Positions 2,903 to 23,873 of a DNA stretch of 25,250 nt are shown piece after piece. This DNA is from Candidatus Zhuqueibacterota bacterium. Its GTDB lineage: Bacteria > Zhuqueibacterota > Zhuqueibacteria > Oleimicrobiales > Geothermoviventaceae. The stretch covers positions 1 to 25,250 of the forward strand of contig JAPDPT010000054.1 of assembly GCA_034506315.1 (NCBI GenBank). Direction: 5' to 3'. Position numbers and translations under genes: made by a program. The notes under the pieces are model-generated. The model had not been told where the DNA came from. It did no database searches and saw nothing but the letters and a program-made list of their open reading frames with translations. Each line of letters begins with the position of its first letter. Positions within the stretch are counted from its first letter, which is position 1.

Positions 2903-3146
2903 CGCCTTTTCTGCTCCGCTTTTGGCTGCTCGCTTCCTGCCATGCGATCCCGGCCCTGCAGGCCGACCAACCCAGTTCACGGGCTAATCCTCCTTAACCG
3001 TTTCAATATAGCGGACCCGCGCAAAATCCCAAGAAGGACGTGGCCCGGGTGCCGACGTAACTCCGGAAAAGGGCATCGCGTCGTGTGACTGGGCCGCGGG
3101 TTGCCCCTTCGGCCGGAGCTCGAAGACCTGGATGGGTCGAGGGGTC

Positions 3147-5192
3147 TCACGGCCCTTCGTACCAGCCAGGTAGAGATACCGTCGCCTGATAGTTCGAGTA
3201 GTTGTACAGAGGATTCCTTACCGGTCGGTACAGCCTTCCGGACCGGGGGTTATCGTCCTGCGTGTACACCCAGAGATCGTAGGGATCCCAGACGACGATT
3301 TCGTCTCGGCAATCGCCAGTGATGTCCAGCACGGCATTACACATCTCAGGGTGACCGTCGTCCGGAAAAACGACCACCCTGCGTCCCCAGCCGTCGAACA
3401 TCCCTCCGTGCTCCGTACTCGCCGAGAGCAAGAAGTACTCCTCGCCGTCGCCTTTCCAATTTACAGGCAGGCACATGCTTCCGTGTTGAACCGGCTCGAA
3501 CTCGCAATACACATTTCCGTTTGCGTCGTAGAGATGTACGATGCCCTGATTGCCCCAGAAGTTGATGCTCACGGTTTCCAGCCCCGGAAGATCCGGTCGG
3601 AAGTTAGCGACGGCCGGGTTCTGCACATGGCCCAGCCGATGGTGCCTCAGGATTTGGCCGTCGAGGCTGAGGAACAGCATCCCTTCGTCGCTGGCGGCAT
3701 TGAGAACGACAGGACTCAAGTCCTCTCGGAGGCGCACAATGGCCACGCCATCGGCATGGTCGTGCAAGATCGGATCGAGGATCCACATCACCGAGCCGTC
3801 GTGGTCCAACAGGCTATATCCGATGGCGACTTCGTCCCGGCCGTCATTGTCAATGTCCGCAGCATAGGGGTAATGTCCGGTATTGCACGCGTGGTGCCAA
3901 AGAACCTCCAGGCGATCGTTCAGTGCCCAGACGTTCCAGTATCGGTCCTTGATCAGAATGTCTCTCGGGTGCCCCGTGCCGCGCAGATCACAGAAGAAGA
4001 GACAGTCTCCGAGGATGCGCGGGAAACGTGCTCCTGGATCTGGAGAGAGTGGTGTTGGGGCGCGCAGCTTTGGGCGCCCGGTCCTACCATCCGCCACCAC
4101 GATCTCCGAGTTCATGCAGTAGACGACCTCGTTCTGTCCATCCGCATCGAGGTCGTGGATCTGGAACGCGACGTCGTTGGTCAGGTGATCCTTCCAGGGA
4201 TCGGGTTCGCCAATCTGCCACAAGATGCGGCCGTCAAAGGTCATAGCCGTCAAGCAGCTCAGCTCGCTGTAGCGGTCCTTCGGTCCGTGGTGGACGACCT
4301 GTCCGATGAGCAAATCCGTTTGCCCGTCACCGTCGAGATCGCCGAAGCGGAGATTTCTCCCCACGCCCAGGCCGTCGATCTGCAGTTTGCGCCACACAAT
4401 GGGGCGCGGGTTGACGGCCCGGAGGCGTTGTTCCTGGCGCAGGAGTTCGGCCCGGCGTCTGAGGTAAGCCCGTCGGGCGACGTAATTCATGGTTACCTTT
4501 ACGCGCTCATAGCGGGCGGGCACGTCGGCGAGCAGACCTACTCGACCGTGGGTGTAGGTCGTATCCTCTGCTTCCAGGGTCAGCTTCCGATTGAAGCGGG
4601 CGCGGATGCGCGAACCCTGGAGCTTGACCTCAGCCTCCAGCCGGTCTCCGGGTTTCCAATCAATGGTGCCCGAAGCGAGGATTCGTTCGGCAGGCCTGTG
4701 GAAACCGACCTCGTGCCGGACGACCTTCAGGTGCGCGATCGATCCATCCACTCCGAAGAAATAGTAACAGCGATCATTCTGGTAGCGGAACACAACCCCG
4801 CAGAGTCCGGTGTCCGACAACGGGCTAAAGGTGACGCGAAGGATGTAGTTCTGCCAGAGCGTGTCGCCCGAGACGAGGATGGGATGGGTATAGGTCCGGT
4901 GATTCGTGTGGGTCTGGACCAGCACCTTGCCCCCGCCTTCCTTGCCGATAACGCGCCAGGCCCTCTGAGAAGCGGTCTCTGGGGTAAATGTCGAGACTTC
5001 CCATCCGTGAACGGGGGCCGCCTCGCGGAAATAATGGTACTCGAGGTGCGCGCCAAGCGGGGGCAGTAGCGGACCACTTGGAAACTCCGCAAAATCTTCG
5101 TCGATCAGCACTTCTTGTCGTGTCGGCGCGCACGCAGTGAGAGCCAGAATGGTGAAGAGCAAGATTCCTTGTCCTTGGCCCCTTCGGAACAT
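3147..5192 (-). CDS. Secreted lipoprotein with FG-GAP/VCBS-like beta-propeller repeats and an N-terminal beta-sandwich region (681 aa); possible glycan-active or adhesion protein
   Basis: I placed the start at ATG 5192, which has GGGAGG 7 nt upstream. This gives MFRRGQGQGILLFTILALTAC, a signal peptide with an LTAC lipobox. There are at least five repeats of the DxDxDG-x-D/E-hydrophobic-G type (FGDLDGDGQTDLLIG, HDLDADGQNEVVY, DIDNDGRDEVAIG, DITGDCRDEIVVWD, CDLRGTGHPRDILI), typical of FG-GAP propellers. The ORF-track start at 5393 would add 67 residues ahead of the signal peptide. Confidence 0.7.
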   Translation of the reverse strand: MFRRGQGQGILLFTILALTACAPTRQEVLIDEDFAEFPSGPLLPPLGAHLEYHYFREAAPVHGWEVSTFTPETASQRAWRVIGKEGGGKVLVQTHTNHRTYTHPILVSGDTLWQNYILRVTFSPLSDTGLCGVVFRYQNDRCYYFFGVDGSIAHLKVVRHEVGFHRPAERILASGTIDWKPGDRLEAEVKLQGSRIRARFNRKLTLEAEDTTYTHGRVGLLADVPARYERVKVTMNYVARRAYLRRRAELLRQEQRLRAVNPRPIVWRKLQIDGLGVGRNLRFGDLDGDGQTDLLIGQVVHHGPKDRYSELSCLTAMTFDGRILWQIGEPDPWKDHLTNDVAFQIHDLDADGQNEVVYCMNSEIVVADGRTGRPKLRAPTPLSPDPGARFPRILGDCLFFCDLRGTGHPRDILIKDRYWNVWALNDRLEVLWHHACNTGHYPYAADIDNDGRDEVAIGYSLLDHDGSVMWILDPILHDHADGVAIVRLREDLSPVVLNAASDEGMLFLSLDGQILRHHRLGHVQNPAVANFRPDLPGLETVSINFWGNQGIVHLYDANGNVYCEFEPVQHGSMCLPVNWKGDGEEYFLLSASTEHGGMFDGWGRRVVVFPDDGHPEMCNAVLDITGDCRDEIVVWDPYDLWVYTQDDNPRSGRLYRPVRNPLYNYSNYQATVSLPGWYEGP

Positions 5193-5425
5193 GGATGCCT
5201 CCCCTTCGTGCCCGATGATCCCGCTGCGCGAGCGAAATTGCAGAGCCCCCGCCAATTCCCAAAGCGAATTTTCCCGTAAGGGGAAGTTCCCATTTCCATG
5301 GCCGAGGCCTTTCAGTGCTGTTTCGGGGGATAGCGGTACGCGCAGCAGTGGGGCAGGTCCTTGAAGACCCCGTTGCCTACGACCTGGGATCACGGAGCGG
5401 GGGTAGGAGCAAGCGGGAAAACGGC

Positions 5426-6667: not shown

Positions 6668-9600
6668 GTGCGCGCGGTGCAGGACCCATTCCGACTCAAG
6701 CCCGTAGAGACTGCCGAGGTCTCCGAGATCAGCGAGCTCACGGCGAGCGCTCAGGTGCGCCGTGAGGACCGCGTCAACTTCCACATCGGGAACCCTGTGC
6801 AGGACCCCCGCCTCTTGTCGATGTACCAGAGGTTAATCCTCGGACTTGCACCCGATAACGGCGCGACGGATCCCAGGGAGTGGATTGAGGAACACGTGGA
6901 AAGCCGGCACCAGGCGGAGCGAGTCCACTGGTTCTTGGGCCTGGTCGAAAAAAGCGTCGCCTACCTGCCGCGCGGTGGGTTCGGACGCAGGGATCCCGGC
7001 TCAGTGGCGCGCAAGGTCCACGCCCTCTTTACGTCCGAAGCGGAGGAGCCGCTGGACTACGACCTCGGCGACAAATCGGGAAAGCGAGAGATCACTTTTG
7101 TCAGTGGGGGAAAGCGGGAAGCCGTCCGGCTGCTTCATTATGCCCTCTCTCGTCAGCTCGAGGTGGCTTCCTTTGCCACGCTGCTCTTCGGCTTCCCCCT
7201 CCCACAAATCCTGCGAGCGTCAGCCCGCGGAGACATAATTCCGTTGCCCGATCAGGAGGGGGATGTCTTACGACTTCTTCGTGAGCGACTCCGCTCGTTT
7301 CCGGACCAACCCCATTTTCTCCTCCTGGGTAGGGTCCCGACGGAAGGCCTGCGGCGAGCCATCCGCAGAGCCTGCCTGGAAGGATCCCTCTTTGTAGTGG
7401 AAGCCAACGGGGCTGCCAATCACCTCTCCCTCGCTCGCGAGGCGGGACTGGCTAATCGTGTGCTCCGCATCCTGGACGCGGCGGATCTGCGCGCAGACCT
7501 GCAGGGACTTGCGGTGGCCGTGGTGCTGGGGCGCGCCGACTACATTGACGCCATCGAAAAAGCCCATTTCGAGCTCAAGGGCACACCCGCGGCTCCGGAG
7601 CTCGAGTTTCTTGGCTACCTGCTGAACCAACCCCTCGACACCAGCGCTTCGGCAACACCCGTGGATGGCTTCGATCTCTCTGCCGCCGTGCCCGAAGGTC
7701 CCCGCTCTTCGTACGAAGGGTTGCGGGGTACAATGGCCCGTGTCCCTTCTGCGGCCACCAGGGTGGCACGACACGTAGAGGAAGTGATCGAGAGACTGCC
7801 AGCCTCCTGTACCTCCGCGCTGCGCGCCAGGCACTGGACCGTGCGGGCCCCCGTAGCCATAGGTGAGCTCCACGTGTCGTTTCCCTCCGCAAGTGTGACG
7901 GACGCCTTCCCCGCGCTGCAACCGACGGAGATTATCGAGCAGCTCTTTACGCGCTACGCCGATCCCTTATGGCGCGCCCAGGTCGTCGAATCGTTCCTGA
8001 GCGCCTTTCTTCAACTCCACCCCGAATATGAACCGGAGGCATGCGCCGTTGTGGGCGGATCGGCGCGGACGGCTCTCGCCCTGCTGGGTCGCTACTGCGG
8101 CCTTGAGGAGGCCATCGTTCCCGACCTGAGCTGGACCTATCATCACTGCTTTCCGCGGGTGACGGCAGTCCCCCTGACCGCCGATTTCCAGCTGGACGTG
8201 GAGGGCATTCTGCGGGAGGTAGATGGGCGACTGGAAGCCGATCGTTCCTGGGCGGAACGCGGGGCGGTGGTGATCAACTCGCCGCACAACGCCTCGGGGC
8301 AAATCTTCCATCAGGGTGACCTTGTCCGCCTGCTCCGTGAACTGCTGGGTCGGGGGGTATGGGTTGTGGACGATCTATCGTACAAGGGGGTGGCGCCTCA
8401 GCCAGGCTTTGTGCGGACCTACTCGTTGCGGGAAATCGCCACTGCGATGGTGCGGCAGGGAGAGCTCCGCCGGGAACACCTGCGCAAGCTGATCACAGTC
8501 CATTCGCTTTCCAAGACGGACTGCTTTGCCGGCGGCCGCCTGGCAGTGGTAGAAATCCTCGACCCGGCCCTCCGATCGCGATTTCGCCGTCTCCTTCAGG
8601 ACATCGCCCCGAACCTGGTTTCCTGCCTCCTGGCATATCTTTTCTACCGCAACGGTGAGAGAATACGGGCATTTTGGGAGCTGCGCAACCGGGTCCTATG
8701 GGAAAGACTGGAAGCGTTGGATCTTGCGTGCGCGGAGGTCCCCGCCGAGCGCAATCCATATAGCGCCAAGCTGGTGCGACCCACCGGGTCGATGTATCCG
8801 CGATTGGAAATCGAAAGACTCCCCGAAGGTGTATCGCTGGTGCGCCTTGCGACGGGCCTGGCAGTACGGGGAATTGGGTTGGTTCCGTTGTCTGCTTTTG
8901 CGCGAACCGCCTCGGGCTGGGAACTGGCCCGCCGGTCGTTCCGGCTCACTCTGGGTGGCGACGACCCTGCGCCCGTCCTGGCCCGGAAGATCCGGCGCGT
9001 CCTGATCGATCTGAATCGGCTAATTGCCCAGGAGGCAGAAGGCTTTCGGAGAAGAACCCTGCCACGAGCGCGTGCGGAGGAGGGCCTCGGTGAGTACAGC
9101 CGCTCGTGGGCAAACCAGTGGGCGGCTCTGAAGGACGAGCTGGAAAGCCGGTCGCGACGGTGGCTGCGCGAGTTTGCGCGCCAACTTCCTGGTACCGATG
9201 AAACCGCTGAAGACGCCTTCGTAGCAGAGTACCTTCCGGAACGCCTCGCCTGGATTCGCCAGCGCCTTGTGGACCGCGCGCGACTTGCGGACGAGATTCT
9301 GTGGCTTGCGCAATCCGACCGGGACGGACTTCTGCGTGGCTTCGCTCACGAGATCCGCTTTCCCGAGCTCGACGCGCGACGCGCGCAATTCCGCTCCCGC
9401 CTCTTTGACCGCACCGTGCACCCCACCCAGATGTACGCGCTGGAGGTGGAGCGGCTCACCAATCGCCTTGTGGATGAGCTGCGAAGGAAAGGTAAGGTCA
9501 GCCAGGAGACCCTGGAGAAGCTGGCCGCCAGCCTGGCTGCCGAGCACCTCGGCCTGAATGTGGCGATTCGCTCCGCCGAGGAGTCCTGGGAGCTTGTGGT

Positions 9601-12289
9601 GGACCTCGACGCGCTGGCCGAGGCGGAACAGGCCGCCCTATTCTGGCACGGAGTGGATCTACCCCTGGTACTCTCGTACTGGGGGGACTGGGACGGAAGC
9701 ACACGTCCGTCAGGGCAAGGGCATCGGTTGGTTGCGGGCGCCCTCCTGGAGAACGTGAGTCGGCTGCGAAGGCTGGTCAAACGTCTGCGCTCCCTCGGAG
9801 TACCGCTGGACCTTCCCGCAGAGCTGGAAGCCGAGTTACAAGGGCTTGAGCGCAAGAACCGGGAGTTTTGGAAGCTCCTCGACGAGATCACCAAGCTTAC
9901 CTCCCAGCTGGAGCAGCGCTACCGGAGTGTGCTGCCCATTGGGAGCCGGACCAGCCCCTGGCGACGGCTCGGAATGCGGCTGGGAGTAGCCAAGGACCCG
10001 ATGACCGTTCTGTGGCTCCACAACGACCGCCTCGAGAAGCGGATGTTGCGGCTGCGAGCGCGTCGGCGGGAAAGCCTGAAAACGTACTTCGAGCTCAATG
10101 AGGAGCTTCACCGCACCCTGCAGAAGCAGCTGGAGCGGATCCGGGAGCATCTTGACCAGCGGCCTGTGGCTGAGGAGATCGGTCACTACCGCAGCCTGCT
10201 CCGGAGATTCTTCCTGACCCCGCGCATTCACCAGCGGATGGTCCTGGCGGTCGACCAGTTCGCCGTGGACACCACGGTGCACAACATGGTTGAGATCAAC
10301 GCTCTGGCCGGAGCACACGGGTTCCCGGGTCTGGTCCTTGCGCTGCAAGTGAGCATGTCCACGGATCCTGAAGCGGTGATCGCTCTGGACCGGAAGCTGC
10401 GCGCCAAGTCGGAGGAATTGCTGCGCCGCCACGGAAAGCTCCCACTCCCCAGCATCTGGATTATCCCCCTTTTTGAGGACCTGGAGACCGTCCGCCAGCT
10501 GGAGGGTTACCTCGACCGTCTGTGGGAGTACGCGGTGCAGAGTCGAAGGCTCGGTCAAAGCCCGGCCGACAGGTTCGCCGAGCTCACGTGTGAGCTTTTT
10601 GTGGCCGGATCGGACCTGAGCCAGCAGGTGAGTCAGCCTGCGGGGTACGCCCTCTACCGCGAAGCCAAGTATCGCGCCATCCGCTGGTTTGCGGAGAAAG
10701 AGCTCGTGGGCCGCGTCCGAATCAAGCTGGGCAGCGGAGAGCCTGCGCAGCGGCAGGGCGGTTATTTCGATCCGACCGTAGGGCAGCCCGTGGCAAGGAC
10801 TGAAGGCCAGGCCTACGCCCTGCTTTCCCGCAACTTCAACGAGGTGGAACGCCAGATGCTCCGCCGGGCGACCGAACCTCTACGAGGCGCCATGGCAGGG
10901 GGGGAGTTCCGGACGTTCCAGAGCAATCTCTTCGAGCGTTTGCGTCTGGCCAGTGCTGAGGAAAGAGCCCAGTTCTTCTTTCACGTCCTCAGCAGTCAGA
11001 GGCAATACGAGGGGGAGCTCCAGCGTGCAGCGTCGTCCCTTGTGGAGACGCGGTTTCTCCACCGGGAGCGCGGCCTGCAGGAGTTGGAGGCGCTTACGCT
11101 CGGCCGGAGGGACGAACATCTTCGCCGGTTCCTGGAGGAGCTACCGCAGCACTTCCGCCAGATCCTCTACGGCAGCGAAGAGGATATCATTGGGCTGCAC
11201 GTCATCTCGTACTTCGTTTCGCGGACCATGCCCCCGCTGCGGGACCGGCCTGTGGTCCGTCCCGGGAGAGAGCCATTAGGTGGCCGCGGGCGCGAGATCG
11301 TCGGTCGCATTGCTGAGACGTTGCCCCTCGCCAAGCACGGAAGCCTGTTGCGGGCGATTGGCCACAACCGTGCCCAGACCATGATCCTTGGGGTGAACCA
11401 GCTCACTACGGGCCTGTTCCGCTGCCTCAAAGCCTTCATTGAGAGCTTCGACAACCCGGCGGAGGGGTGGCGGGTGGTCGAGGACAGCATCCTACCCCAC
11501 CTTCCCGTTTACGACATCCTGCACACCCTCCGCCTCTACCATGATCTGGATCTCGAGTACGTCCGGAGGCTCGAAGGCGTCTTCCCCCCGGGCAATTCGG
11601 CCCTGCTGGCCCTGCGCGAGGACAACGATGCCATCCGGGAGTTCATTCCTTCGTTTCAGCGGGAACTGCTGCGGCGCTGCGGTCTGGAAAGCGAGGGCTT
11701 TTTCACGGATGGCCACGTCCGTCGGGATCTGCTCCCCTTGCTTAGGCCTGAGCTGGTGGTCCTCCTTCAGCCAGATCTCTTTAACACGGATTATAACCGA
11801 TTGGTGGACCGGCTCGGCGAGGTCGTGGACAGCGACTGGGGTAGGGAGGTAGGCCGGCTCCTCGAGAAGAGGGACAAAGTACGGATGTGGCGCGCCCGTA
11901 TCTGGGACATCATTGAGGGGCCAGTGCGCTCGCAAGTGGAGAGTTTCGTCCAGTTGGCCCAGGCGGTCAATCGACTCACCGCGGGCGGCAGTGTCTGGGA
12001 TTCGCCGTTTGCCGCCAATCCCGGTGAGGTTCTGAGGCTCGGGGCCCAGGTGGCGAGTCTGTTGCGCGGAGCTGCCGACGACATGATGCGGCAGTTCCTC
12101 ATCGCCGCGGTGCAGTACCTGACGCAGCTTCCGCAAGGGGCCGCAGGTGTACCCATCGAGGTGATCCGGGCGCTGCGCAATGTCGAACGCATTGTGATGA
12201 TCGAGGAGCAGGCGCTCAACGAGAAGCAGCTGGCTTTGGTTCGCTTCTGCACTTTGCAGATTGCACGGCTGTGCGGGGAGAACGGCTGA
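6668..12289 (+). CDS. Giant 1873-aa multidomain protein. It has a degenerate aminotransferase-like domain, then an intact class I/II (AspAT-like) PLP aminotransferase domain, then a divergent phosphoenolpyruvate carboxylase (PEPC)-like domain.
   Basis: A single uninterrupted frame of 5622 nt with very high GC3. The GTG start at 6668 has GAGGGGA upstream. Aminotransferase motifs are listed under the sub-features. PEPC motifs occur in the canonical order and spacing and are also listed under the sub-features. Stop is TGA at 12287-12289. Confidence 0.85.
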   Translation: MRAVQDPFRLKPVETAEVSEISELTASAQVRREDRVNFHIGNPVQDPRLLSMYQRLILGLAPDNGATDPREWIEEHVESRHQAERVHWFLGLVEKSVAYLPRGGFGRRDPGSVARKVHALFTSEAEEPLDYDLGDKSGKREITFVSGGKREAVRLLHYALSRQLEVASFATLLFGFPLPQILRASARGDIIPLPDQEGDVLRLLRERLRSFPDQPHFLLLGRVPTEGLRRAIRRACLEGSLFVVEANGAANHLSLAREAGLANRVLRILDAADLRADLQGLAVAVVLGRADYIDAIEKAHFELKGTPAAPELEFLGYLLNQPLDTSASATPVDGFDLSAAVPEGPRSSYEGLRGTMARVPSAATRVARHVEEVIERLPASCTSALRARHWTVRAPVAIGELHVSFPSASVTDAFPALQPTEIIEQLFTRYADPLWRAQVVESFLSAFLQLHPEYEPEACAVVGGSARTALALLGRYCGLEEAIVPDLSWTYHHCFPRVTAVPLTADFQLDVEGILREVDGRLEADRSWAERGAVVINSPHNASGQIFHQGDLVRLLRELLGRGVWVVDDLSYKGVAPQPGFVRTYSLREIATAMVRQGELRREHLRKLITVHSLSKTDCFAGGRLAVVEILDPALRSRFRRLLQDIAPNLVSCLLAYLFYRNGERIRAFWELRNRVLWERLEALDLACAEVPAERNPYSAKLVRPTGSMYPRLEIERLPEGVSLVRLATGLAVRGIGLVPLSAFARTASGWELARRSFRLTLGGDDPAPVLARKIRRVLIDLNRLIAQEAEGFRRRTLPRARAEEGLGEYSRSWANQWAALKDELESRSRRWLREFARQLPGTDETAEDAFVAEYLPERLAWIRQRLVDRARLADEILWLAQSDRDGLLRGFAHEIRFPELDARRAQFRSRLFDRTVHPTQMYALEVERLTNRLVDELRRKGKVSQETLEKLAASLAAEHLGLNVAIRSAEESWELVVDLDALAEAEQAALFWHGVDLPLVLSYWGDWDGSTRPSGQGHRLVAGALLENVSRLRRLVKRLRSLGVPLDLPAELEAELQGLERKNREFWKLLDEITKLTSQLEQRYRSVLPIGSRTSPWRRLGMRLGVAKDPMTVLWLHNDRLEKRMLRLRARRRESLKTYFELNEELHRTLQKQLERIREHLDQRPVAEEIGHYRSLLRRFFLTPRIHQRMVLAVDQFAVDTTVHNMVEINALAGAHGFPGLVLALQVSMSTDPEAVIALDRKLRAKSEELLRRHGKLPLPSIWIIPLFEDLETVRQLEGYLDRLWEYAVQSRRLGQSPADRFAELTCELFVAGSDLSQQVSQPAGYALYREAKYRAIRWFAEKELVGRVRIKLGSGEPAQRQGGYFDPTVGQPVARTEGQAYALLSRNFNEVERQMLRRATEPLRGAMAGGEFRTFQSNLFERLRLASAEERAQFFFHVLSSQRQYEGELQRAASSLVETRFLHRERGLQELEALTLGRRDEHLRRFLEELPQHFRQILYGSEEDIIGLHVISYFVSRTMPPLRDRPVVRPGREPLGGRGREIVGRIAETLPLAKHGSLLRAIGHNRAQTMILGVNQLTTGLFRCLKAFIESFDNPAEGWRVVEDSILPHLPVYDILHTLRLYHDLDLEYVRRLEGVFPPGNSALLALREDNDAIREFIPSFQRELLRRCGLESEGFFTDGHVRRDLLPLLRPELVVLLQPDLFNTDYNRLVDRLGEVVDSDWGREVGRLLEKRDKVRMWRARIWDIIEGPVRSQVESFVQLAQAVNRLTAGGSVWDSPFAANPGEVLRLGAQVASLLRGAADDMMRQFLIAAVQYLTQLPQGAAGVPIEVIRALRNVERIVMIEEQALNEKQLALVRFCTLQIARLCGENG
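6758..7700 (+). other. Domain: degenerate N-terminal aminotransferase-like copy (about aa 30-340) lacking the Schiff-base lysine
   Basis: It has the N-terminal NFHIGNPVQDP motif (like INLGIGxP) and the ITFVSGGKREAVRLLHYAL motif (like the VTNGaqEAL small-domain start). At the position that my by-eye alignment equates with the SxSK lysine, the sequence is LRILDAADLRADLQGLAVAVV, so Lys is replaced by Ala (codons 7472-7486). The NPTG-like Asn and the DEVY-like Asp are not recognisable. Confidence 0.45.
7950..9070 (+). other. Domain: intact fold-type I (class I/II) PLP-dependent aminotransferase (about aa 430-800)
   Basis: The motifs match the canonical aminotransferase class I/II order: AVVGGSARTALALLGRY, EEAIVPDLSWTYHHCF, VVINSPHNASGQIF (8275-8300, NPTG-like Asn), VVDDLSYKG (8364-8390, cofactor-binding Asp), TVHSLSKTDCFAGGRLAVVE (Lys codon 8513-8515), and a C-terminal ARRSFRLTLGG Arg that should bind the substrate carboxylate. 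Confidence 0.7.
9070..12289 (+). other. Domain: divergent phosphoenolpyruvate carboxylase-like region (about aa 800-1873)
   Basis: By-eye collinearity with E. coli-type PEPC landmarks. VLTAHPTE corresponds to RTVHPTQ (His codon 9419-9421). LLKEAGI...PLFETLDDL...IDWYRG corresponds to LLRRHGKL...IPLFEDLETV...LDRLWEY (10462-10492). MIGYSDSAKDAG...ASWAQYQAQ corresponds to FVAGSDLSQQVSQPAGYALYREAKYRA (10598-10660). LFHGRGGSIGRGGAP corresponds to KLGSGEPAQRQGGYFDP (10722-10775). LRAIPWIFAWTQNR corresponds to LRAIGHNRAQTMILGVNQLTTG (11346-11415). The C-terminal ...MRNTG corresponds to ...CGENG. Confidence 0.6.
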
Positions 12290-12599: not shown

Positions 12600-13283
12600 G
12601 TGCGGACGATTCTGTTCGACATTGACGGGACCCTCCTGTTCTCTGGAGGTGCAGGAAGAAGGGCGATGACCCTGGCCTTCCGCGATGTGTACGGCCTGGA
12701 AGACGGGTTCGCCGGGATCTCGATGTCGGGTAAGACCGACGCTCAGATCCTCCGGGAAGCCCTGCTCAGAGCGGGATTGCCCCTCGAGGAGCGCTCCGCT
12801 GCCCTTTTCCGCCAGCGATACTTCGAGCACCTCCGGTCCACAATGAACGACCAGGCCCCGGGGAAACGGCTTGTTCCGGGCGTGAACCAGCTCCTTGAGG
12901 CTCTCAGGGTGCGCGGGGGCGTCTTGCTGGGACTTTTGACCGGGAACTGGAGGGAAAGCGCCTACATTAAGCTGAGGCGATTCGGGATCGACCATTTCTT
13001 CCCCTTCGGCGCCTTCGCAGACGATTCTGAAGATCGCAATGCGCTCCTGCCTGTTGCCATCAGGCGTGCGGAAAGTCTCGCCAGGCGTCAGTTGGAGGCA
13101 GCGGACGTCTGGATCGTCGGAGACACACCGAGAGACGTCGAATGCGGAAGTGTTCACGGTGTGAAGGTGTTGGGCGTGGCATCGGGCGAGTACGGGCCCG
13201 AGGTGCTTGCCGCGGCTGGCGCTACTGCAGTGGTAAGAGATTTTAGGGACGTGCAGGCTGTCCTGGGGATTCTGCTGGCCTGA
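12600..13283 (+). CDS. HAD-superfamily hydrolase (phosphoglycolate phosphatase / beta-phosphoglucomutase-like subfamily)
   Basis: I chose GTG 12600 (VRTILFDIDGTLLFSGG) as the start because HAD enzymes begin at the DxDGT nucleophile motif. AGGAAG lies just upstream with a short spacer. Motif II (LLTGNWRES), motif III Lys and the motif IV VWIVGDTPRDVECG are present. The ORF-track start at 12261 gives a low-complexity N-extension that overlaps the giant ORF, and I rejected it. Confidence 0.65.
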   Translation: MRTILFDIDGTLLFSGGAGRRAMTLAFRDVYGLEDGFAGISMSGKTDAQILREALLRAGLPLEERSAALFRQRYFEHLRSTMNDQAPGKRLVPGVNQLLEALRVRGGVLLGLLTGNWRESAYIKLRRFGIDHFFPFGAFADDSEDRNALLPVAIRRAESLARRQLEAADVWIVGDTPRDVECGSVHGVKVLGVASGEYGPEVLAAAGATAVVRDFRDVQAVLGILLA

Positions 13284-13468: not shown

Positions 13469-13900
13469 ATGAACGCGAAACGTGTACTGATTGCCCTTCT
13501 CGTGGTGGTTCCCCTTGGATTCGCTTTCAAGTTTTACAAAGGTCCTCTGAACGGCTGGTTCAACGACTACGGTGCGGGGGTCTTGTACGAGGTCTTCTGG
13601 ATTCTTCTGGCCTCACTTCTGTTTCCTGCTCCCTACCACCGAGTGCGCATTGCAGCCGCTGTCTTTGTGATCACGTGCGGCCTGGAATTCCTGCAATTGT
13701 GGAATGCACCGTTCCTGAACGGAATCCGGCGTAGCTTCTTGGGCGCTGCCGTGCTGGGAAGCACCTTTTCGTGGTTGGATTTCCCCCACTATGCCATCGG
13801 CTGTCTCCTCGGCTATTACCTGTTGCGCGGGGTAATCGCCACAGGGAGCAGTTCGGGATCCGTCCGCTCCGGGTTCCTGGCGACCCGGCCGCCAGGCTAA
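13469..13900 (+). CDS. Small integral membrane protein, DUF2809-like (about 143 aa)
   Basis: ATG 13469 (MNAKRVLIALLVVVPLGFAF...) with GAGAGGAAG upstream. Three to four hydrophobic helices. The NGWFNDYGAGVLYEVFWILL segment resembles DUF2809-family proteins as I recall them. The family assignment is from memory. Confidence 0.55.
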   Translation: MNAKRVLIALLVVVPLGFAFKFYKGPLNGWFNDYGAGVLYEVFWILLASLLFPAPYHRVRIAAAVFVITCGLEFLQLWNAPFLNGIRRSFLGAAVLGSTFSWLDFPHYAIGCLLGYYLLRGVIATGSSSGSVRSGFLATRPPG

Positions 13901-14028
13901 GGAAAGCCGGGGCAGCTCGTCCGATGCGGACGGGGCTATTCTCGAGTAGCCGGGAATTGCGAGGACCGGCAAAGAGCGAGAAGCACACCAGTGCTCAAAC
14001 TTGCAAGCCGCAAGGGAGGTGGAGAGAA

Positions 14029-14946
14029 GTGACGGGTCGATTCGGCTCTTTCCTTTTGGTGTGGACGATGGCGCAGCTCGTATCCATAGCGCGGGGGCAG
14101 GAGAGTTCCCAAAGTCTGTTGTCCCTCTTGCCACAGGTGCCTGGGTGGAAGCAATCCGAGGAGCCCGCGTTCTACGATCGGAGCAATCTGTTCGACTATA
14201 TCGACGGAGGTTGCGAACTTTACTACGCCCACGGCTTTCAGCAACTGGCCAGTGCGCTCTACGAATCGACTGCGGACCCAGGTCGAACGCTGACCGTCGA
14301 TATCTACGACATGGGGTCGCCCCTTGGAGCTTTCGGGATCTACGGGGCGATGGTTTATCCGGAATTCCCCTCCGTACCCATTGGCTGCGGAGGGGTGGTC
14401 AGCGACCTGCAATTGCGCTTCTGGCAAGGCCGATACGAGGTGGAGCTCAACGGGGACGTGGACCGGGAGACGCTTCTGGCCTTTGCCGCTGCCATCTCCG
14501 CCAAAATGCCTCCCTGTGAGCTACCGGAGCAAGTCGCTTGGATCCCACGGGAACTCAGTGCTCCGAATGGTCTGCGGTACGCTCCCCATGGTGTTTTGCA
14601 ATTCGCATTCCTGCCGCCTGGAATGGAGGCGGTCTGCCCCGTAGACACGCTGGTGGTGCGTGCCTTTGTGGCACGGGCGGCCACGGCTGACTCCGCCATG
14701 GCAGCGCTGAGTCAATTCAGACGGCACGTCCTTGCCGAGACTCCCCCGGCGCGGCTTCAGGACTCGGCCACGGGCTTTACAGCGAAGAGCCCGCGCCTGG
14801 GACACCTGATGGTGGAGACCTGCGGCGAGTGGGTCCTGGGCAGCGTTTGCCGGGAAAGCGCCGAGGCTGCTGCCAAGGTGCTCGGTCAACTGCGGGAACA
14901 CGTGTGCAACAGGCTTCGGCTCCAATCTGCCAATGAGAAAAAATGA
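14029..14946 (+). CDS. Secreted hypothetical protein (305 aa) with several conserved-looking Cys, unknown function
   Basis: GTG 14029 is preceded by the strong SD GGGAGGTGGAG. The N-terminal signal peptide is RFGSFLLVWTMAQLVSIARG followed by a likely cleavage site before QESSQ. The ORF-track start at 13771 overlaps the DUF2809 gene and has no RBS. Stop is TGA at 14944-14946. Confidence 0.55.
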   Translation: MTGRFGSFLLVWTMAQLVSIARGQESSQSLLSLLPQVPGWKQSEEPAFYDRSNLFDYIDGGCELYYAHGFQQLASALYESTADPGRTLTVDIYDMGSPLGAFGIYGAMVYPEFPSVPIGCGGVVSDLQLRFWQGRYEVELNGDVDRETLLAFAAAISAKMPPCELPEQVAWIPRELSAPNGLRYAPHGVLQFAFLPPGMEAVCPVDTLVVRAFVARAATADSAMAALSQFRRHVLAETPPARLQDSATGFTAKSPRLGHLMVETCGEWVLGSVCRESAEAAAKVLGQLREHVCNRLRLQSANEKK

Positions 14947-14950
14947 CGGA

Positions 14951-14970
14951 CTGGTGCCTGCGGGCACCGG
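14951..14970 (+). terminator. GC-rich hairpin 5 nt after the stop codon (8-bp stem with one G-U, loop TGCG). No U-tract.
   Basis: CTGGTGCC-TGCG-GGCACCGG at 14951-14970. It is followed by CTCGGAACC rather than a T-run, so it may be a terminator or an RNA 3'-end stabiliser. Confidence 0.35.
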
Positions 14971-15102
14971 CTCGGAACCGCCTGGTTTACCCTTGCCCCA
15001 CTTCGCCGAAAATGCGGCAGGACCTCGCGATTGGAGCGCTGCTGGGAGGCCGTGAGAAACAGAGTCCATTCGAGTCGGAGAGCAGTCGGGTAGGAGAAGG
15101 AG

Positions 15103-17304
15103 ATGAGAAGAGGCGCGCGAATTCTTTGGTTGCCCATGCTGTGGATCGTAGCAGGATCGACCACAGCGGGAGTCCTCACGCGTCCAGAGATTGAGCGCAA
15201 GATCGACGATCTTCTGGCACGGATGACGGTCGAGGAGAAGGTGGGGCAGCTTGTTCAGTTCAGCTACCCGGATGTTCAGAACCACGAGGAGCTGATCCGC
15301 CAGGGGAGGGTTGGCTCGTTCCTGAACGTCCGCGATGTGGAAACGGCCAACCGGCTCCAACGGGTCGCGGTGCACGAATCGCGCCTGGGAATTCCCCTCA
15401 TCTTTGGAAATGACGTGATCCACGGTTGCCGGACCATCTTTCCTATCCCCCTGGCGGAGGCTGCAACCTGGAATCCGGAGCTTGTCCGCAGGTGTGCGCG
15501 CATCGCTGCCCGCGAAGCTGCCAGTATCGGCACCCACTGGACTTTCGCGCCGATGGTGGATATCGCCCGTGACCCCCGGTGGGGGAGAATTGCTGAGGGG
15601 GCTGGCGAGGATCCCTATCTCGGATCCGTAATGGCGCGGGCGAAGGTAGAGGGCTTCCAGGGCGACGACCTCTCCCACCCGGAAACCATCGCGGCTTGCC
15701 CGAAACACTACGTTGCCTACGGCGCGGCCGTCGGCGGCCGTGACTACAACACCGTGGATCTCTCGGAGTGGGAGCTCCGGGAGGTGTACCTTCCACCTTT
15801 CCGGGCTGCCATCGAGGCGGGGGCCGCCACCATCATGAGCGCTTTCAACGATCTGTGCGGCGTTCCAGCCTCCGCCAACTCCTTCACGCTCACGCGCATT
15901 CTCCGGGAGGAATGGGGATTTGACGGCTTCGTAGTGAGCGATTGGGATGCCATCGCCGAGCTGGTGAGCCACGGCCTGGCCGCTTCAGTAGAGGAGGCTG
16001 CTCAGCTCGCCCTTCAAGCCGGCGTGGATATGGACATGATGGGCTACGCCTATCACCGCTATCTGGCCGATCTTGTCCAGAGCGGCCGGGTGCCGATGGA
16101 GTGGCTCGATCGATCCGTCCGGCGGGTGCTGCGAGTCAAGTACCTCCTTGGGCTCTTCGAGAGGCCGTTCGTCGACCCGAGACGTCAACGGAGCGTAATT
16201 CTGGCGCCAGAGCATTTGGAGGTCGCCCTTCAGGCTGCACGCGAGGCCATTGTGCTGCTGAAGAACGAAGGCCATGTGCTCCCGCTTCCGAAGAGCTCCG
16301 GCACAGTCGCTGTACTGGGTCCCTTGGCCAACAACCGTGCCGATCTCCTCGGCTCGTGGTCGATGGAGGGAAGGCCCGAGGACGTGGTTACGGTCCTGGA
16401 CGCGATTCGCGAGAAGATAGGGACGAACCGCGTGCTCTTTGCACCCGGCTGCGGCATCTCCGACACCTCGCGCGCAGGGATCGCCGAGGCGGTGGCTCTA
16501 GCCCGGAAGGCGACCGTGGCCATAGTGGTCGTGGGGGAGAGTGCGAACATGAGCGGCGAGGGGGCAAGCAGGGCCCATCTGGACCTGCCCGGAGTTCAGC
16601 TCGAATTGGTGAAAAGCGTCTGGCAAGCCGGCGTCCCGACTGTGGTCGTGCTGGTAAATGGGAGGCCTCTGGCCATCCCCTGGATCGCTGAGCACATCCC
16701 CGCTATTGTGGAGAGTTGGCAATTGGGGGTGCAACACGGGAGAGCTGTGGCCGACGTTCTATTCGGTGATTTCAATCCATGTGGCAAGCTCCCCGCGACT
16801 TTCCCTCGCTCCGTCGGCCAGGTACCCATCTATTACAACCACAAGAACACCGGGCGGCCTCCACAGGCCTCCGAAAGATACTGCTCTAAGTACATCGATG
16901 AGGATTGGAACCCCCTGTATCCCTTTGGTTTCGGCCTAAGCTACACCACGTTTCGCTTCGAGAACCTTCGGCTCAGCGAGAGCCGCATCAGGCCCTATGG
17001 AAAGGTGACGGTGACCGTAGACGTCGTCAACGTGGGGTCTGTGGCGGGTCATGAAGTTGCGCAGCTCTACATTCGTGACGTCGCGGCCAGCCGCACGCGG
17101 CCTGTAAAGGAGCTGCGAGGTTTCCGCAAGGTCTTCCTCCGTCCCGGCGAGAGGGCAACCGTCTGCTTTGAGCTCGGGCCGCACGAGCTGGGGTTCTACA
17201 ATCGGCACATGGAATGGGTGGTCGAGCCCGGTGAGTTCCGCGTTTGGGTAGGCCCGAACTCCGTTGAAGGTCTCGAAGCGCGGTTCGAGGTAGTCACACC
17301 GTAG
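15103..17304 (+). CDS. bglX: Periplasmic/secreted glycoside hydrolase family 3 beta-glucosidase (BglX-like), 733 aa
   Basis: ATG 15103 has AGGAGAAGGAG upstream. Signal peptide MRRGARILWLPMLWIVAGSTTAGV. The GH3 N-terminal TIM-barrel motifs are present (GNDVIHGCRTIFP, KHYVAYGAAVGGRDY, GFDGFVVSDWDA with the nucleophile Asp), as is the C-terminal alpha/beta domain with its FnIII-like tail. Confidence 0.9.
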   Translation: MRRGARILWLPMLWIVAGSTTAGVLTRPEIERKIDDLLARMTVEEKVGQLVQFSYPDVQNHEELIRQGRVGSFLNVRDVETANRLQRVAVHESRLGIPLIFGNDVIHGCRTIFPIPLAEAATWNPELVRRCARIAAREAASIGTHWTFAPMVDIARDPRWGRIAEGAGEDPYLGSVMARAKVEGFQGDDLSHPETIAACPKHYVAYGAAVGGRDYNTVDLSEWELREVYLPPFRAAIEAGAATIMSAFNDLCGVPASANSFTLTRILREEWGFDGFVVSDWDAIAELVSHGLAASVEEAAQLALQAGVDMDMMGYAYHRYLADLVQSGRVPMEWLDRSVRRVLRVKYLLGLFERPFVDPRRQRSVILAPEHLEVALQAAREAIVLLKNEGHVLPLPKSSGTVAVLGPLANNRADLLGSWSMEGRPEDVVTVLDAIREKIGTNRVLFAPGCGISDTSRAGIAEAVALARKATVAIVVVGESANMSGEGASRAHLDLPGVQLELVKSVWQAGVPTVVVLVNGRPLAIPWIAEHIPAIVESWQLGVQHGRAVADVLFGDFNPCGKLPATFPRSVGQVPIYYNHKNTGRPPQASERYCSKYIDEDWNPLYPFGFGLSYTTFRFENLRLSESRIRPYGKVTVTVDVVNVGSVAGHEVAQLYIRDVAASRTRPVKELRGFRKVFLRPGERATVCFELGPHELGFYNRHMEWVVEPGEFRVWVGPNSVEGLEARFEVVTP

Positions 17305-21837: not shown

Positions 21838-21842
21838 GGCGC

Positions 21843-21966
21843 AGGTCTTCGGGGCCAGGTGGAAGTCCTGACCGGTGGTGAAAGCCCACGAGTCCACTGC
21901 AGGCGGGGTGGACAGAGCCGGTGGAATTCCGGCGCCGACGGTGAAAGTCCGGAGGGGAGAAGACCG
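21843..21966 (+). promoter_or_regulatory. FMN riboswitch (RFN element) aptamer
   Basis: CTTCGGGGCCAGGTGGAAGTCCTGACCGGTGGTGAAAGCCCACGAG...GGTGGAATTCCGGCGCCGACGGTGAAAGTCCGGAGGGGAGAAGAC matches the RFN consensus (CTTCGGGGCAGGGTGAAATTCCCGACCGGCGGTA...AGCCCGCGAGC...GGTGGATTC...CCGACAGTGAAAGTCTGGATGGGAGAAG). The P1 stem pairs GTCTTC (21845-21850) with GAAGAC (21959-21964). Confidence 0.9.
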
Positions 21967-21999
21967 TAGCATGAGCCGCCTCTCCCATAGGAGCTGCAC

Positions 22000-22050: not shown

Positions 22051-23163
22051 GTGATGCCGGGACGAGAGGAGGATTTCCTCCGAAGAACGATGCAGCTAGC
22101 GAACAAGGGCAGGGGAAGGGTATCACCCAATCCTCTCGTCGGAGCCGTGGTAGTGCGCGATGGGCAGGTGGTGGGCGAAGGCTACCACGCTCAATACGGC
22201 GGTCCTCACGCGGAGGTGGTCGCCCTGGAGAGGGCTGGTGAACGCGCCCGCGGTGCGACCCTGTATGTCAATCTGGAGCCCTGTTGCCATTACGGAAAGA
22301 CGCCCCCGTGCACGGACGCGATCATTCGCGCCGGGATCCGCAAGGTCGTCGTGGCTCTGGTGGACCCCAACCCGCTGGTCAAGGGTCAGGGGATTGAGGC
22401 GTTGCGAAAGGCTGGGATCGAAGTCGAGCTCCGGGATCAGCTTGCCGCGGCGCAACGGCTCAACCGCGGCTACCTGAAATGGATACGAACCGGCCTTCCA
22501 TATGTCACCGCTAAGGCCGCCATTACGCTGGACGGAAAGGTGGCTACGGTCGCGCGGGAATCGAAATGGATTACCTCGGAATCGGCTCGGCGGCGCGCGC
22601 ACCGTCTGCGCGCCGAACACGACGCCGTACTGGTGGGCAGGGGCACACTGTTGGCCGACGATCCCGAGCTGACGGTGCGCTACGTTCGGGGACCCAACCC
22701 CTGGCGTGTCATCCTGGACGAAGATCTCGGAGCCAGCCAAGGGTGCCGGGCCGTAGAGCTCGGGCGGCGCGATGGCAAGACGATCCTCTTTGCCTCGCGT
22801 TCCAAAGTGGATGCCGCGAGCAGCCGACCCTTCCAAGCCGAGGGCATCCACGTCGAGCTCGTCGACTCCCGCGAGAACGGATTCCTCGATCTCAAGCAGG
22901 TTCTGGAGACATTGGGAAAAAGGGGCGTTACTTCCGTTCTCGTCGAGGGAGGGAGCAGCATTTTGACCTCCTTTCTCCGTGAGCAGCTCGTGGACGAACT
23001 CGTGCTGTTCCTTGCCCCGAAGCTGCTGGGCAGCGGCCTCAGTCTGGCGGGAGAGCTCGGCATTTCCAGGTTAGACCAGGCGTTGCAATTCTCGTTCAGC
23101 CGGATCGAACGCCTCGGCCCGGATTTATGCCTGTGGCTGGTTCCTGCGTGGGCGAAGGACTGA
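22051..23163 (+). CDS. ribD: Bifunctional riboflavin biosynthesis protein RibD (diaminohydroxyphosphoribosylaminopyrimidine deaminase / 5-amino-6-(5-phosphoribosylamino)uracil reductase)
   Basis: It has the N-terminal CMP/dCMP-type deaminase zinc motifs (HAEVVAL, PCCHYGKTPPCTDAII) and a C-terminal RibD reductase domain. It starts at the tandem ATG ATG at 22051. Confidence 0.9.
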   Translation: MMPGREEDFLRRTMQLANKGRGRVSPNPLVGAVVVRDGQVVGEGYHAQYGGPHAEVVALERAGERARGATLYVNLEPCCHYGKTPPCTDAIIRAGIRKVVVALVDPNPLVKGQGIEALRKAGIEVELRDQLAAAQRLNRGYLKWIRTGLPYVTAKAAITLDGKVATVARESKWITSESARRRAHRLRAEHDAVLVGRGTLLADDPELTVRYVRGPNPWRVILDEDLGASQGCRAVELGRRDGKTILFASRSKVDAASSRPFQAEGIHVELVDSRENGFLDLKQVLETLGKRGVTSVLVEGGSSILTSFLREQLVDELVLFLAPKLLGSGLSLAGELGISRLDQALQFSFSRIERLGPDLCLWLVPAWAKD

Positions 23164-23166
23164 TCG

Positions 23167-23832: not shown

Positions 23833-23873
23833 AAAGAGCATGCTCGGACAAAGCTGTTTGGGAGATCCGGGCC

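Follow-up and report, generated by a model that had tools for sequence, protein, structure and literature searches.

The window, that is, the whole stretch of DNA that was analysed, is 25,250 nucleotides long and carries a giant ORF together with an SPFH gene on its 5' side and a HAD hydrolase gene on its 3' side. The coordinates of these genes, and of the domains and motifs discussed below, are shown in Table 1. The giant ORF starts 31 nt past the stop of the SPFH gene, and a Shine-Dalgarno-like GAGGGG is located 10 nt 5' of it. Its product is identical to the NCBI protein MDZ7374484.1 from a MAG of candidate division KSB1. The upstream product, which NCBI names SPFH domain-containing protein, scored 35.7 bits against Band_7 (cut-off 23.6). 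It consists of an N-terminal transmembrane helix, an SPFH domain and a coiled-coil tail, and the hydrophobic helix, MMWWSIIAILAAVGVGFAAL, is followed by RFRR. In the downstream gene, the GTG 12600 start is also the site of HAD motif I, and the PhnX-like score of the product was far under the cut-off.

Table 1. Genes, domains and motifs of the locus (positions are those of the window).
Feature	Position	Strand	Evidence
SPFH/Band 7 gene, 329 aa, MDZ7374483.1	5647..6636	+	Pfam Band_7
Giant ORF, 1873 aa, MDZ7374484.1	6668..12289	+	GTG start; ORF listing, homologue searches
Domain 1, aa ~10-325, predicted degenerate aminotransferase-like α/β, no catalytic lysine	6695..7642	+	AF2 model, weak hhalign
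NFHIGNP, N-terminal-arm-like motif, domain 1	6776..6796	+	
YLPRGG motif, domain 1	6962..6979	+	
Linker aa 326-410, variable, predicted-disordered	7643..7897	+	pLDDT <50
Domain 2, aa ~411-800, class-I aminotransferase, complete PLP site	7898..9067	+	Pfam, BNA3 profile, Foldseek
NSPHNASG motif, domain 2	8276..8299	+	
DDLSY motif, domain 2	8369..8383	+	
SLSKTDCFAGGRLA, Schiff-base lysine signature, aa 613-626, domain 2	8504..8545	+	
K616, Schiff-base lysine	8513..8515	+	
R759, C-terminal Arg of domain 2	8942..8944	+	
Helical linker aa 801-905, variable, into barrel	9068..9382	+	Helices in both models
Domain 3, aa ~906-1873, divergent PEPC-superfamily β-barrel and helical C-terminal part	9383..12286	+	
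TVHPTQ motif, domain 3	9413..9430	+	
WGDWDGSTRPSGQGH motif, domain 3	9680..9724	+	
TPRIHQ motif, domain 3	10217..10234	+	
QVSMSTDPEA motif, domain 3	10346..10375	+	
PLFED motif, domain 3	10466..10480	+	
AGSDLSQQ motif, domain 3	10604..10627	+	
KLGSGEPAQRQGG, glycine-rich-loop counterpart, domain 3	10724..10762	+	
RTFQSN motif, domain 3	10910..10927	+	
RDRPVVRP motif, domain 3	11240..11263	+	
LRAIGHNRAQT motif, domain 3	11348..11380	+	
C-terminal GENG, domain 3	12275..12286	+	
HAD-IA hydrolase, likely 227 aa from GTG 12600	12600..13283	+	Pfam HAD_2

The first-pass annotation had read the giant ORF as a fusion of enzyme domains in one polypeptide, and had named a frameshift or stop that splits the ORF as an objection to this reading. 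Searches of NCBI, JGI, ENA and Logan yielded over 120 homologues of full length (1837-1904 aa; identity 43-74%); among the 120 homologues listed, nearly all fall within this length range, with a query coverage of 100%. Relatives occur in at least 359 species genomes, and the ORF was uninterrupted at 83 independent loci (median 1875 aa). When 1.84 billion representatives were searched exhaustively with an HMM, the full-length matches were all proteins of 1700-1950 aa with the C-terminal domain at residues ~830-1870, the shorter matches resembled fragments, and the giant family formed a separate deep clade of only 245 representatives. The only complete proteins consisting of the barrel alone belonged to the distant P0251 family. 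These results confirm the ORF at 6668..12289 as genuine, intact and conserved. The one-polypeptide fusion thus stands, and a splitting frameshift or stop is ruled out by the comparative data. The same data refute the view that separate aminotransferase and PEPC-like genes were joined by a sequencing error in assembly or annotation: this view finds support in one long-read MAG locus with frame irregularities and nowhere else, and it has practically no probability against so many intact ORFs of about 1875 aa, full-length homologues in four databases and the restriction of complete stand-alone barrels to the distant P0251 family.

Mean pairwise identity was 47%, 55% and 55% for domains 1, 2 and 3, respectively, and invariant columns made up 12% of domain 1 and 20% of the barrel. 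The linker of aa 326-410 had a pairwise identity of 12% with zero invariant columns, and that of aa 801-905 a pairwise identity of 24%. That is, the three domains are similarly constrained while the linkers are free to vary. The giant protein is a conserved three-module cytoplasmic protein.

The adjacency of the SPFH gene is new in the present analysis and was absent from the first-pass annotation. At all 79 loci with upstream DNA, an SPFH orthologue (222-553 bits) was located immediately 5' of the giant gene on the same strand, with a median gap of 64 nt. These loci span Ignavibacteriota, Calditrichota, Acidobacteriota, Chloroflexota, KSB1 and Kryptoniota. The result shows that the giant gene and the membrane-anchored SPFH gene form an invariant two-gene operon. 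The HAD hydrolase was considered as a third component and rejected, since it adjoins the giant gene in only 5 of 85 loci, lies 310 nt downstream of it in the window and has the low PhnX-like score given above. All-against-all clustering of the flanking ORFs revealed no other conserved neighbour, and the leftover clusters were shadow ORFs within the giant gene. No NfeD gene was found within the window. PADLOC gave no match to an anti-phage defence system for the giant, SPFH or HAD protein, no riboswitch or other RNA element was detected ahead of the operon, either here or at seven diverse loci, and a search for a sigma-70-like promoter upstream of the operon gave no match.

The aminotransferase character of the protein resides in domain 2. 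Pfam Aminotran_1_2 scored 43.8 bits with the whole protein and 47.7 bits with aa 401-800 (cut-off 19.7); the matched part is aa 446-687, and PF00155 was present in all homologues listed. In the profile search of the PDB, the closest solved sequence was BNA3 (3b46, kynurenine-type) at 3e-9, and AspATs followed at 2.5e-3 or weaker. The HMM alignment to BNA3 paired NnPhNAsG with NTPHNPIG and iDDLsY with ISDEVY; N541, D569 and Y572, which align to PLP residues of BNA3, were invariant in 30 homologues, as were S615, K616, R624 and R759. A regular expression of what we take to be the class-I aminotransferase signature matched exactly in 3 of these 30 and with one relaxed position in 15, always once and at the K616 site. 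In Foldseek, which compared the N-terminal model as a whole, the best 50 matches comprised class-I aminotransferases and ACC synthases only (E 6e-15 to 5e-13, TM(target) 0.57-0.71). The top matches for domain 2 (E ~1e-14, TM(target) 0.65-0.70) were scattered over many class-I specificities. The aminotransferase, which had been taken to be of the AspAT type, is thus not specifically AspAT-like. Equating the invariant R467 with K109, the lysine of Thermus AspAT that binds the side-chain carboxylate, was also rejected: the BNA3 alignment puts R467 one position off, and we therefore make no claim on specificity.

Domain 1 had been described as the first of two tandem aminotransferases. Domain 2 bears this description out by its Pfam match, but domain 1 does not, because it has neither a Pfam match nor a Schiff-base lysine. 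That of the window protein matched no Pfam family at E <= 1, and in ten homologues the domain lacked any aminotransferase match up to E 10, the only matches being two to unrelated families at the level of chance (E ~0.1). The class-I signature expression had zero matches in domain 1, and at the place expected for the lysine, after strand E265-270, the sequence is LDAADLR (consensus LTPxxxSP). The AF2 model of the two N-terminal domains (pLDDT 83, pTM 0.82) gave for domain 1 the element order E142-H149-E170-H180-E189-H197-E216-H226-E241-E265-E283-H290, which parallels the order E459...H633 of domain 2 one for one. hhalign of the two domains was not significant (E 0.2-0.26), its register was that of the secondary structure, and adding predicted secondary structure left the score unchanged. 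Domain 1 is thus a predicted degenerate aminotransferase-like domain, an assignment based solely on the predicted order of secondary-structure elements, the same as in the large domain of domain 2. We infer from the model that domains 1 and 2 may pack against each other as a pseudo-dimer within one chain, whose only PLP site would be that of K616. In such a pair, the N-terminal arm and the tyrosine of "YLP", which a second subunit normally contributes, would come from domain 1.

Direct sequence comparison did not identify domain 3. Pfam gave no PEPcase or PEPcase_2 match at E <= 1, NCBIfam gave none, neither phmmer nor a profile found a PEPC in the PDB, and local hmmsearch --max and sensitive blastp against E. 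coli Ppc remained at noise level. Of the profile HMM searches that had been proposed, that for Aminotran_1_2 thus succeeded, whereas those for PEPcase and PEPcase_2 failed in the C-terminal half. The link is transitive. The A2 profile found P0251 at 9e-25, hhalign of A2 against A3 gave a probability of 99.9 (E 4.5e-32, 712 columns), and P0251 scored 32.8 bits against PEPcase_2 (cut-off 25). P0251 and P0268 both have a precomputed PF14010 match; P0251 and its family profile found no PEPC in the PDB. The structure closest to the predicted barrel was an archaeal-type PEPC, and in Foldseek E. coli Ppc (1jqn) aligned over the full length at E 3.7e-10. The invariant motifs of the barrel sit in low-pLDDT loops, likewise the mobile catalytic loops of PEPC. 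The proposed PEPC fold of the C-terminal half is thus borne out by the predicted fold together with the link through P0251, and with the Pfam match of domain 2 so is the presence of both enzyme families in one chain. These results show that the barrel belongs to the PEP carboxylase superfamily, from whose other members it has diverged deeply.

The PEPC motifs that had been read from the translation were all present beside E. coli Ppc, and ten of them were collinear. hhalign against E. coli Ppc gave one local block only (E 0.058), in which ISM, PLFE and GYSDS correspond to E. coli 439-555; a -glob alignment was meaningless and was discarded. A semi-global alignment scored no better than shuffles (z 0.27), with several motifs paired correctly and with E506/E1270, D543/D1316, K546/Q1319 and R713/R1562 placed at the same sites. 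Since no sequence HMM recognises the barrel, the residue equivalences rest on the motifs, the weak hhalign block and this non-significant pairwise alignment. On this footing, the barrel has kept equivalents of E. coli H138, R396, E506, D543, R587, R699 and R713, and H918, R1186, E1270, D1316 and R1562, aligned by hhalign, pairwise alignment and motifs, are invariant. We take H138 to be the catalytic histidine of E. coli Ppc, and E506 and D543 its metal ligands. The plant equivalents of R396 and R713, the arginines of the PEP phosphate, are reported to be essential, and the equivalent of K546 is one of the four residues of the HCO3- site (PMC6363079).

Substitutions at catalytic positions of the PEPC half had been noted before, and they hold. 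K546 is replaced by Q1319, which is invariant, and the glycine-rich loop GRGGxxGRGG is replaced by KLGSGEPAQRQGG, in which R581 has become S1356 and R587 alone has an equivalent left (R1362). The loop generally reads GSGEPxQRQGG, GGDRDGN has become GDWDGS, and TEQGE has become TFQSN. The related standalone family retains the lysine (AGSDLSK). By the aligned positions, the substitutions fall exactly on the machinery of carboxylation and bicarbonate handling.

We therefore weigh what the protein may do. As the best explanation as a whole, with a probability that we put somewhat short of even, we propose a PEP-using barrel joined to a PLP aminotransferase and organised by the SPFH protein. The barrel would still bind PEP and a divalent metal through the kept residues and convert PEP into a 2-oxo acid, from which the aminotransferase would then make an amino acid. 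The simplest such scheme is PEP + HCO3- -> oxaloacetate -> aspartate, and channelling of oxaloacetate by the fusion, as suggested earlier, is plausible. Because K546, R581 and the loop glycines are replaced, the electrophile or acceptor, and hence the product, may differ. At the membrane, the SPFH protein probably serves to anchor or arrange the enzyme on the cytoplasmic side. We also consider a more specific form, which is doubtful: a membrane-organised assembly of SPFH and giant protein, in which a remodelled barrel uses PEP without carboxylation and feeds a single-site "heterodimeric" PLP domain.

Several other readings bear on this proposal. The barrel may have been neofunctionalised so that it no longer carboxylates and carries out another reaction of PEP or an oxo acid linked to the PLP domain, such as the hydrolysis of PEP to pyruvate, the decarboxylation of oxaloacetate, a phosphoryl transfer onto a different carboxylate or a rearrangement of the phosphonate type; its product or substrate would be handled by the PLP domain, and the overall activity would therefore be new. 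The changes at K546 and R581 (both replacements invariant), in the loop, and in DWDGS and TFQSN affect the side of the site that deals with bicarbonate and carboxyphosphate, whereas the ligands of PEP and the metal persist; the equivalent of K546 belongs to the HCO3- site (PMC6363079), the standalone relatives keep the lysine, and the family is a small, deep clade. We nevertheless regard this reading as rather unlikely: archaeal-type PEPC, the closest structure, carboxylates despite its strong divergence from bacterial PEPC, and no pathway context favours any particular alternative chemistry, since conserved neighbours other than SPFH are lacking and the HAD neighbour is neither conserved nor a match to PhnX. 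It is unlikely, too, that the barrel is the sole catalyst, a PEPC whose anaplerotic flux is tuned by the aminotransferase-fold domains acting as a PLP-dependent amino-acid sensor. Such a sensor, comparable to that of MocR/GabR regulators, would stand in for the allosteric site at which ordinary PEPC responds to aspartate or malate. In favour of this, one of the two domains, domain 1, is a pseudo-enzyme already, aminotransferase-fold sensor domains retain the lysine, as in MocR (PMC6677901), and canonical PEPC is under aspartate feedback (PMC8100219). However, N541, D569, Y572, R624 and R759 are invariant across phyla together with K616, domain 2 is as conserved as the barrel, and the protein has no DNA-binding or signalling output domain.

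That both halves are pseudo-enzymes, and the protein a non-catalytic scaffold or adaptor for an SPFH membrane assembly, would suit the strict SPFH pairing and a barrel that sequence HMMs do not recognise. Pseudo-enzymes usually lose active-site positions. Here, the invariant residues cluster at the canonical active sites of both folds (metal ligands, His, Schiff-base Lys), and we consider a purely structural role highly improbable. We therefore retain, tentatively, the PEP-using barrel coupled to a PLP aminotransferase.

Nothing relevant to the fusion or the operon emerged from the literature searched, and a review of PEPC names four types (bacterial, plant-type, plant "bacterial-type" and archaeal-type) and no such fusion (PMC8100219). 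The earlier statement that no family with an aminotransferase-PEPC architecture has been described thus agrees with these sources, and the architecture is new, built from known folds. Database annotations of the protein read only "aminotransferase", and metabolic reconstructions therefore miss any role that it may have at the PEP/oxaloacetate/aspartate node in uncultured lineages abundant in sediment and soil (Ignavibacteriota, Calditrichota, KSB1, Anaerolineae and Acidobacteriota). If the barrel is active, it would be a fifth form of PEPC beside the four recognised types (PMC8100219), and the first coupled covalently to the next enzyme of nitrogen assimilation. The model also suggests that nature has turned a fold-type-I PLP enzyme into a single-chain pseudo-dimer, and through the operon an SPFH membrane scaffold would be connected with central metabolism. 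If the assembly with non-carboxylating PEP use is true, it would represent a new PEP-driven activity that forms or consumes amino acids, and the SPFH protein would be the first scaffold of its kind to serve a metabolic enzyme specifically.

Compared with E. coli Ppc (PEPcase, 1jqn), the barrel is similar in size and shares the motif pairs TAHPTE/TVHPTQ, DIRQES/TPRIHQ, VISM/QVSM, PLFE, GYSDS/AGSDL, LRAIPW/LRAIGH and the C-terminal xNTG/xENG, but identity is only 12-14%, and HMM, BLAST and global alignment are all non-significant. Archaeal-type PEPC (PEPcase_2; 3odm, Clostridium perfringens) is a standalone homotetramer (PMC8100219) of about 530 aa, whereas the barrel comprises about 970 aa, is fused behind two aminotransferase-fold domains and has no direct PEPcase_2 match.

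Domain 2 shares with class-I aminotransferases (the kynurenine/BNA3-YbdL type, Thermus-type AspAT, DapC, LysN and ACC synthase) the SxSK...GxR, NPxNxxG and D-x-x-Y motifs, the C-terminal Arg and the fold. Its identity with the solved members is about 15-22%, and it fits no specificity subgroup. Ordinary class-I aminotransferases are homodimers of about 400 aa; in contrast, domain 2 is part of an 1873-aa chain, lacks an N-terminal arm of its own and is preceded by a large-domain copy without the lysine. In MocR/GabR, a fold-type-I aminotransferase domain has likewise been taken up by a protein of several domains, where it serves to bind the effector (PMC6677901), but its partner there is a wHTH DNA-binding domain, whereas here it is a PEPC barrel and a DNA-binding domain is lacking.

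The operon can be compared with known ones as well. Bacterial SPFH operons encode stomatin, flotillin or HflKC with NfeD or FtsH partners, and proteases and NfeD proteins make up most of the clients known for SPFH proteins of bacteria. The present operon resembles them in that a membrane-anchored SPFH protein is encoded beside a specific, presumed working partner, but this partner, instead of NfeD or a protease, is a metabolic-enzyme-like protein of 1873 aa.

The giant ORF follows a ribosome-binding-like site (GAGGGG) lying 10 nt to its 5' side, begins 31 nt beyond the stop codon of the gene before it, and has the GC content of its surroundings. The identical protein, MDZ7374484.1 of a candidate division KSB1 MAG, bears in NCBI the sole name 'aminotransferase class I/II-fold PLP-dependent enzyme'. 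A word-indexed search gave 368 relatives, the best 120 of which were nearly all 1837-1904 aa long, with 100% query coverage and 43-74% identity. When one genome was scanned for each species, 359 genomes carried a relative, and the ORF was uninterrupted in the 83 loci fetched (median 1875 aa). The claim of the first-pass annotation that this is a single ORF was checked against a frameshift or split gene and held; the full-length relatives, the 359 genomes and the intact loci rule out an artefact, to which we assign a vanishingly small probability. In one long-read Ignavibacteriota MAG (L045, 4926..7319), the frame of the upstream SPFH gene stays open into the giant gene's 5' portion and closes at 7319, the result of either a frameshift in the assembly or a natural fusion of the SPFH and giant genes.

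Features of the window and their coordinates
Feature	Coordinates	Strand	Remarks
Polysaccharide-related flank genes	521..5393	-	
SPFH/Band 7 gene, 329 aa	5647..6636	+	directly upstream of giant gene
Giant ORF, 1873 aa	6668..12289	+	GTG start; ORF listing
(K)VSEISE(A)TA helix	6716..6745		aa 17-26
Mechanical ORF, 340 aa	12261..13283	+	overlaps end of giant gene
HAD hydrolase, probably 227 aa (as in the related locus L003)	12600..13283	+	GTG at 12600, GAGGAAG site ahead
Polysaccharide-related flank genes	13771..17304	+	
FMN riboswitch (RF00050, 110 bits)	21841..21968	+	upstream of riboflavin operon
ribD / riboflavin synthase / ribBA operon	22051..25196		

Domain 2 (aa ~411-800) was matched by Pfam Aminotran_1_2 at aa 446-687 (43.8 bits; cut-off 19.7), and the family profile matched yeast BNA3 (3b46) at about 3e-9, NnPhNAsG aligning with NTPHNPIG and iDDLsY with ISDEVY. 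Among 30 homologues from several phyla, N541, D569, Y572, S615, K616, R624 and R759 were invariant, and the class-I signature that surrounds the Schiff-base Lys occurred once per protein, at K616 (exact in 3 of the 30, with one relaxed position in 15). The AlphaFold2 model of aa 1-830 (pLDDT 83, pTM 0.82) retrieved class-I aminotransferases in Foldseek (E about 1e-14, TM (target) 0.65-0.70). From the profile match, the invariant PLP residues and the Foldseek matches, therefore, domain 2 is a bona fide class-I PLP domain. The more specific label 'AspAT-type' was not established, because the matches spread over many specificities (TM1131, Thermus AspAT, DapC, ACC synthase, LysN and HisC).

Pfam matched nothing in the first 325 residues of the window protein, and no aminotransferase family in that part of ten homologues. 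Profile-profile comparison of domain 1 with domain 2 was not significant (E 0.2-0.26), and domain 1 has no lysine after the sixth strand; the earlier description of tandem aminotransferase domains is only partly right. The predicted elements of domain 1 (E142, H149, E170, H180, E189, H197, E216, H226, E241, E265, E283 and H290) follow the order of E459...H633 of domain 2 one for one, and the weak, non-significant profile alignment lies in the same register. Domain 1 also has the motifs NFHIGNP and YLPRGG, both absent from domain 2, which resemble the N-terminal arm of class-I enzymes such as AspAT and their Tyr70 'YLP' segment. We infer that domain 1 may be a lysine-less pseudo-aminotransferase domain completing domain 2 as an intramolecular pseudo-dimer, and the high pTM of the two-domain model fits such an arrangement. 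Ahead of the aminotransferase-like part lies an N-terminal helix with the near-invariant sequence (K)VSEISE(A)TA (S19, E20, S22, E23 and T25 invariant), which could mediate an interaction, the SPFH partner being one candidate.

With the C-terminal half (the barrel), Pfam, NCBIfam and PDB searches found nothing, and comparison with E. coli Ppc by hmmsearch, blastp and global alignment stayed at noise level; hhalign gave one block only (aa 1183-1329 with Ppc 439-555, E 0.058). The top 48 Foldseek matches of the AlphaFold2 model of aa 861-1873 (pLDDT 79, pTM 0.78) were all PEP carboxylases, led by E. coli 1jqn (3.7e-10), with plant enzymes and archaeal-type 3odm after it, and the following match had an E of 0.3. 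Only 245 relatives came out of an exhaustive HMM search against 1.84 billion representatives, and they include two standalone proteins of about 1000 aa. The standalone six-protein family aligned with the barrel in hhalign (probability 99.9, E 4.5e-32), and its member P0251 exceeded the Pfam PEPcase_2 cut-off (32.8 against 25 bits). The predicted structure and the intermediate sequences settle that the C-terminal half is PEPC-like, as first proposed, and together with the Pfam match of domain 2 they confirm the fusion. Literature searches found no description of the fusion or the SPFH operon, in agreement with the earlier remark, whose author was aware of no such family.

The standalone proteins (P0251, P0258 and P0265-P0268; 940-1040 aa) number six in 5.8 billion, and they may form an undescribed PEPC clade of their own. 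They retain the GSDxSK lysine, and two of the six reach PEPcase_2. Their genes (loci L087-L089) lie among housekeeping genes, one adjoining GAPDH, with no SPFH or aminotransferase gene as a neighbour.

Ten motifs of the barrel are collinear with those of E. coli Ppc.

Collinear motifs of the two proteins
E. coli Ppc	Window protein
LTAHPTE	RTVHPTQ
SWMGGDRDGNP	YWGDWDGSTRP
IDIRQES	LTPRIHQ
YVISMAKTPSD	LQVSMSTDPEA
APLFETLDDL	IPLFEDLETV
IGYSDSAKD	AGSDLSQQ
FHGRGGSIGRGG	KLGSGEPAQRQGG
RVTEQGE	RTFQSN
SRP...LRAIPW	DRP...LRAIGH
C-terminal RNTG	C-terminal GENG

Kept and invariant (E. coli = window) are H138 = H918, R396 = R1186, E506 = E1270, D543 = D1316, R587 = R1362, R713 = R1562 and, tentatively, R699 = R1527. 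The substitutions at catalytic positions reported in the first pass are present, and the replacements are likewise invariant: K546 to Q1319, R581 to S1356, R253 to W1008, and the glycines of the E. coli loop. The barrel is under the same constraint as the aminotransferase (mean pairwise identity 55%, invariant columns 20%), and the linkers drift (12% and 24% identity). Invariant motifs sit in low-pLDDT loops of the model (aa 1008-1015, 1359-1365, 1405-1419 and 1526-1565), and the mobile catalytic loops of PEPC behave in the same way. On a constant numbering offset of 54 between plant and E. coli residues, the residues corresponding to R396 and R713 in the plant enzyme are cited as essential, and the one corresponding to K546 is one of four HCO3- site residues (PMC6363079). 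Judged from these residues, the barrel looks like a putative working site that would bind PEP and metal, with its bicarbonate side remodelled.

In the SPFH partner, RFRR comes directly after an N-terminal membrane helix, and the tail is a coiled coil. Its orthologue (222-553 bits) lay directly upstream on the same strand in all 79 loci with upstream DNA (median gap 64 nt), across Ignavibacteriota, Calditrichota, Acidobacteriota, Chloroflexota, KSB1 and Kryptoniota. Clustering of flanking ORFs gave no other shared gene, no riboswitch was found upstream of the operon, and PADLOC gave no matches. The HAD hydrolase, whose gene probably starts at the GTG because motif I (VRTILFDIDGT) begins there behind GAGGAAG, adjoins the giant gene in only 5 of 85 loci and is not conserved; the NCBIfam names that came closest (PhnX-like, phosphoglycolate phosphatase) were far below cut-off. 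The flanks encode FG-GAP / rhamnogalacturonan lyase 11-like, DUF6599 and GH3 glycosidase proteins, then MgtE and an M28 peptidase; an 819-aa protein weakly resembles glucosamine-6-P isomerase. This whole arrangement is syntenic in a 74%-identical relative (L002/L003) and not in more distant genomes. The riboswitch and riboflavin operon are ordinary in arrangement.

These results showed a conserved polypeptide made up of pseudo-aminotransferase, aminotransferase and PEPC-like parts, with a membrane SPFH protein as its partner; the first-pass observation is confirmed, and its interpretation is supported in part. As to its function, we favor, at somewhat short of an even chance, the reading from sequence that the barrel would make a 2-oxo acid from PEP, that the single PLP site would transaminate it, and that the SPFH protein would hold the enzyme at the membrane; the simplest version is the originally proposed scheme, PEP + HCO3- to oxaloacetate to aspartate. 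That the barrel is neofunctionalised and non-carboxylating seems rather unlikely to us. We also regard as unlikely that a sensor of aminotransferase fold regulates a PEPC-like catalyst. An inert scaffold is very improbable.

The giant fusion is built of enzyme folds that are already known; it occurs widely in uncultured lineages, and its present annotation is wrong. Ordinary aminotransferases have no counterpart of its (K)VSEISE(A)TA helix, and the four types of PEPC distinguished in a 2020 review are all unfused (PMC8100219).
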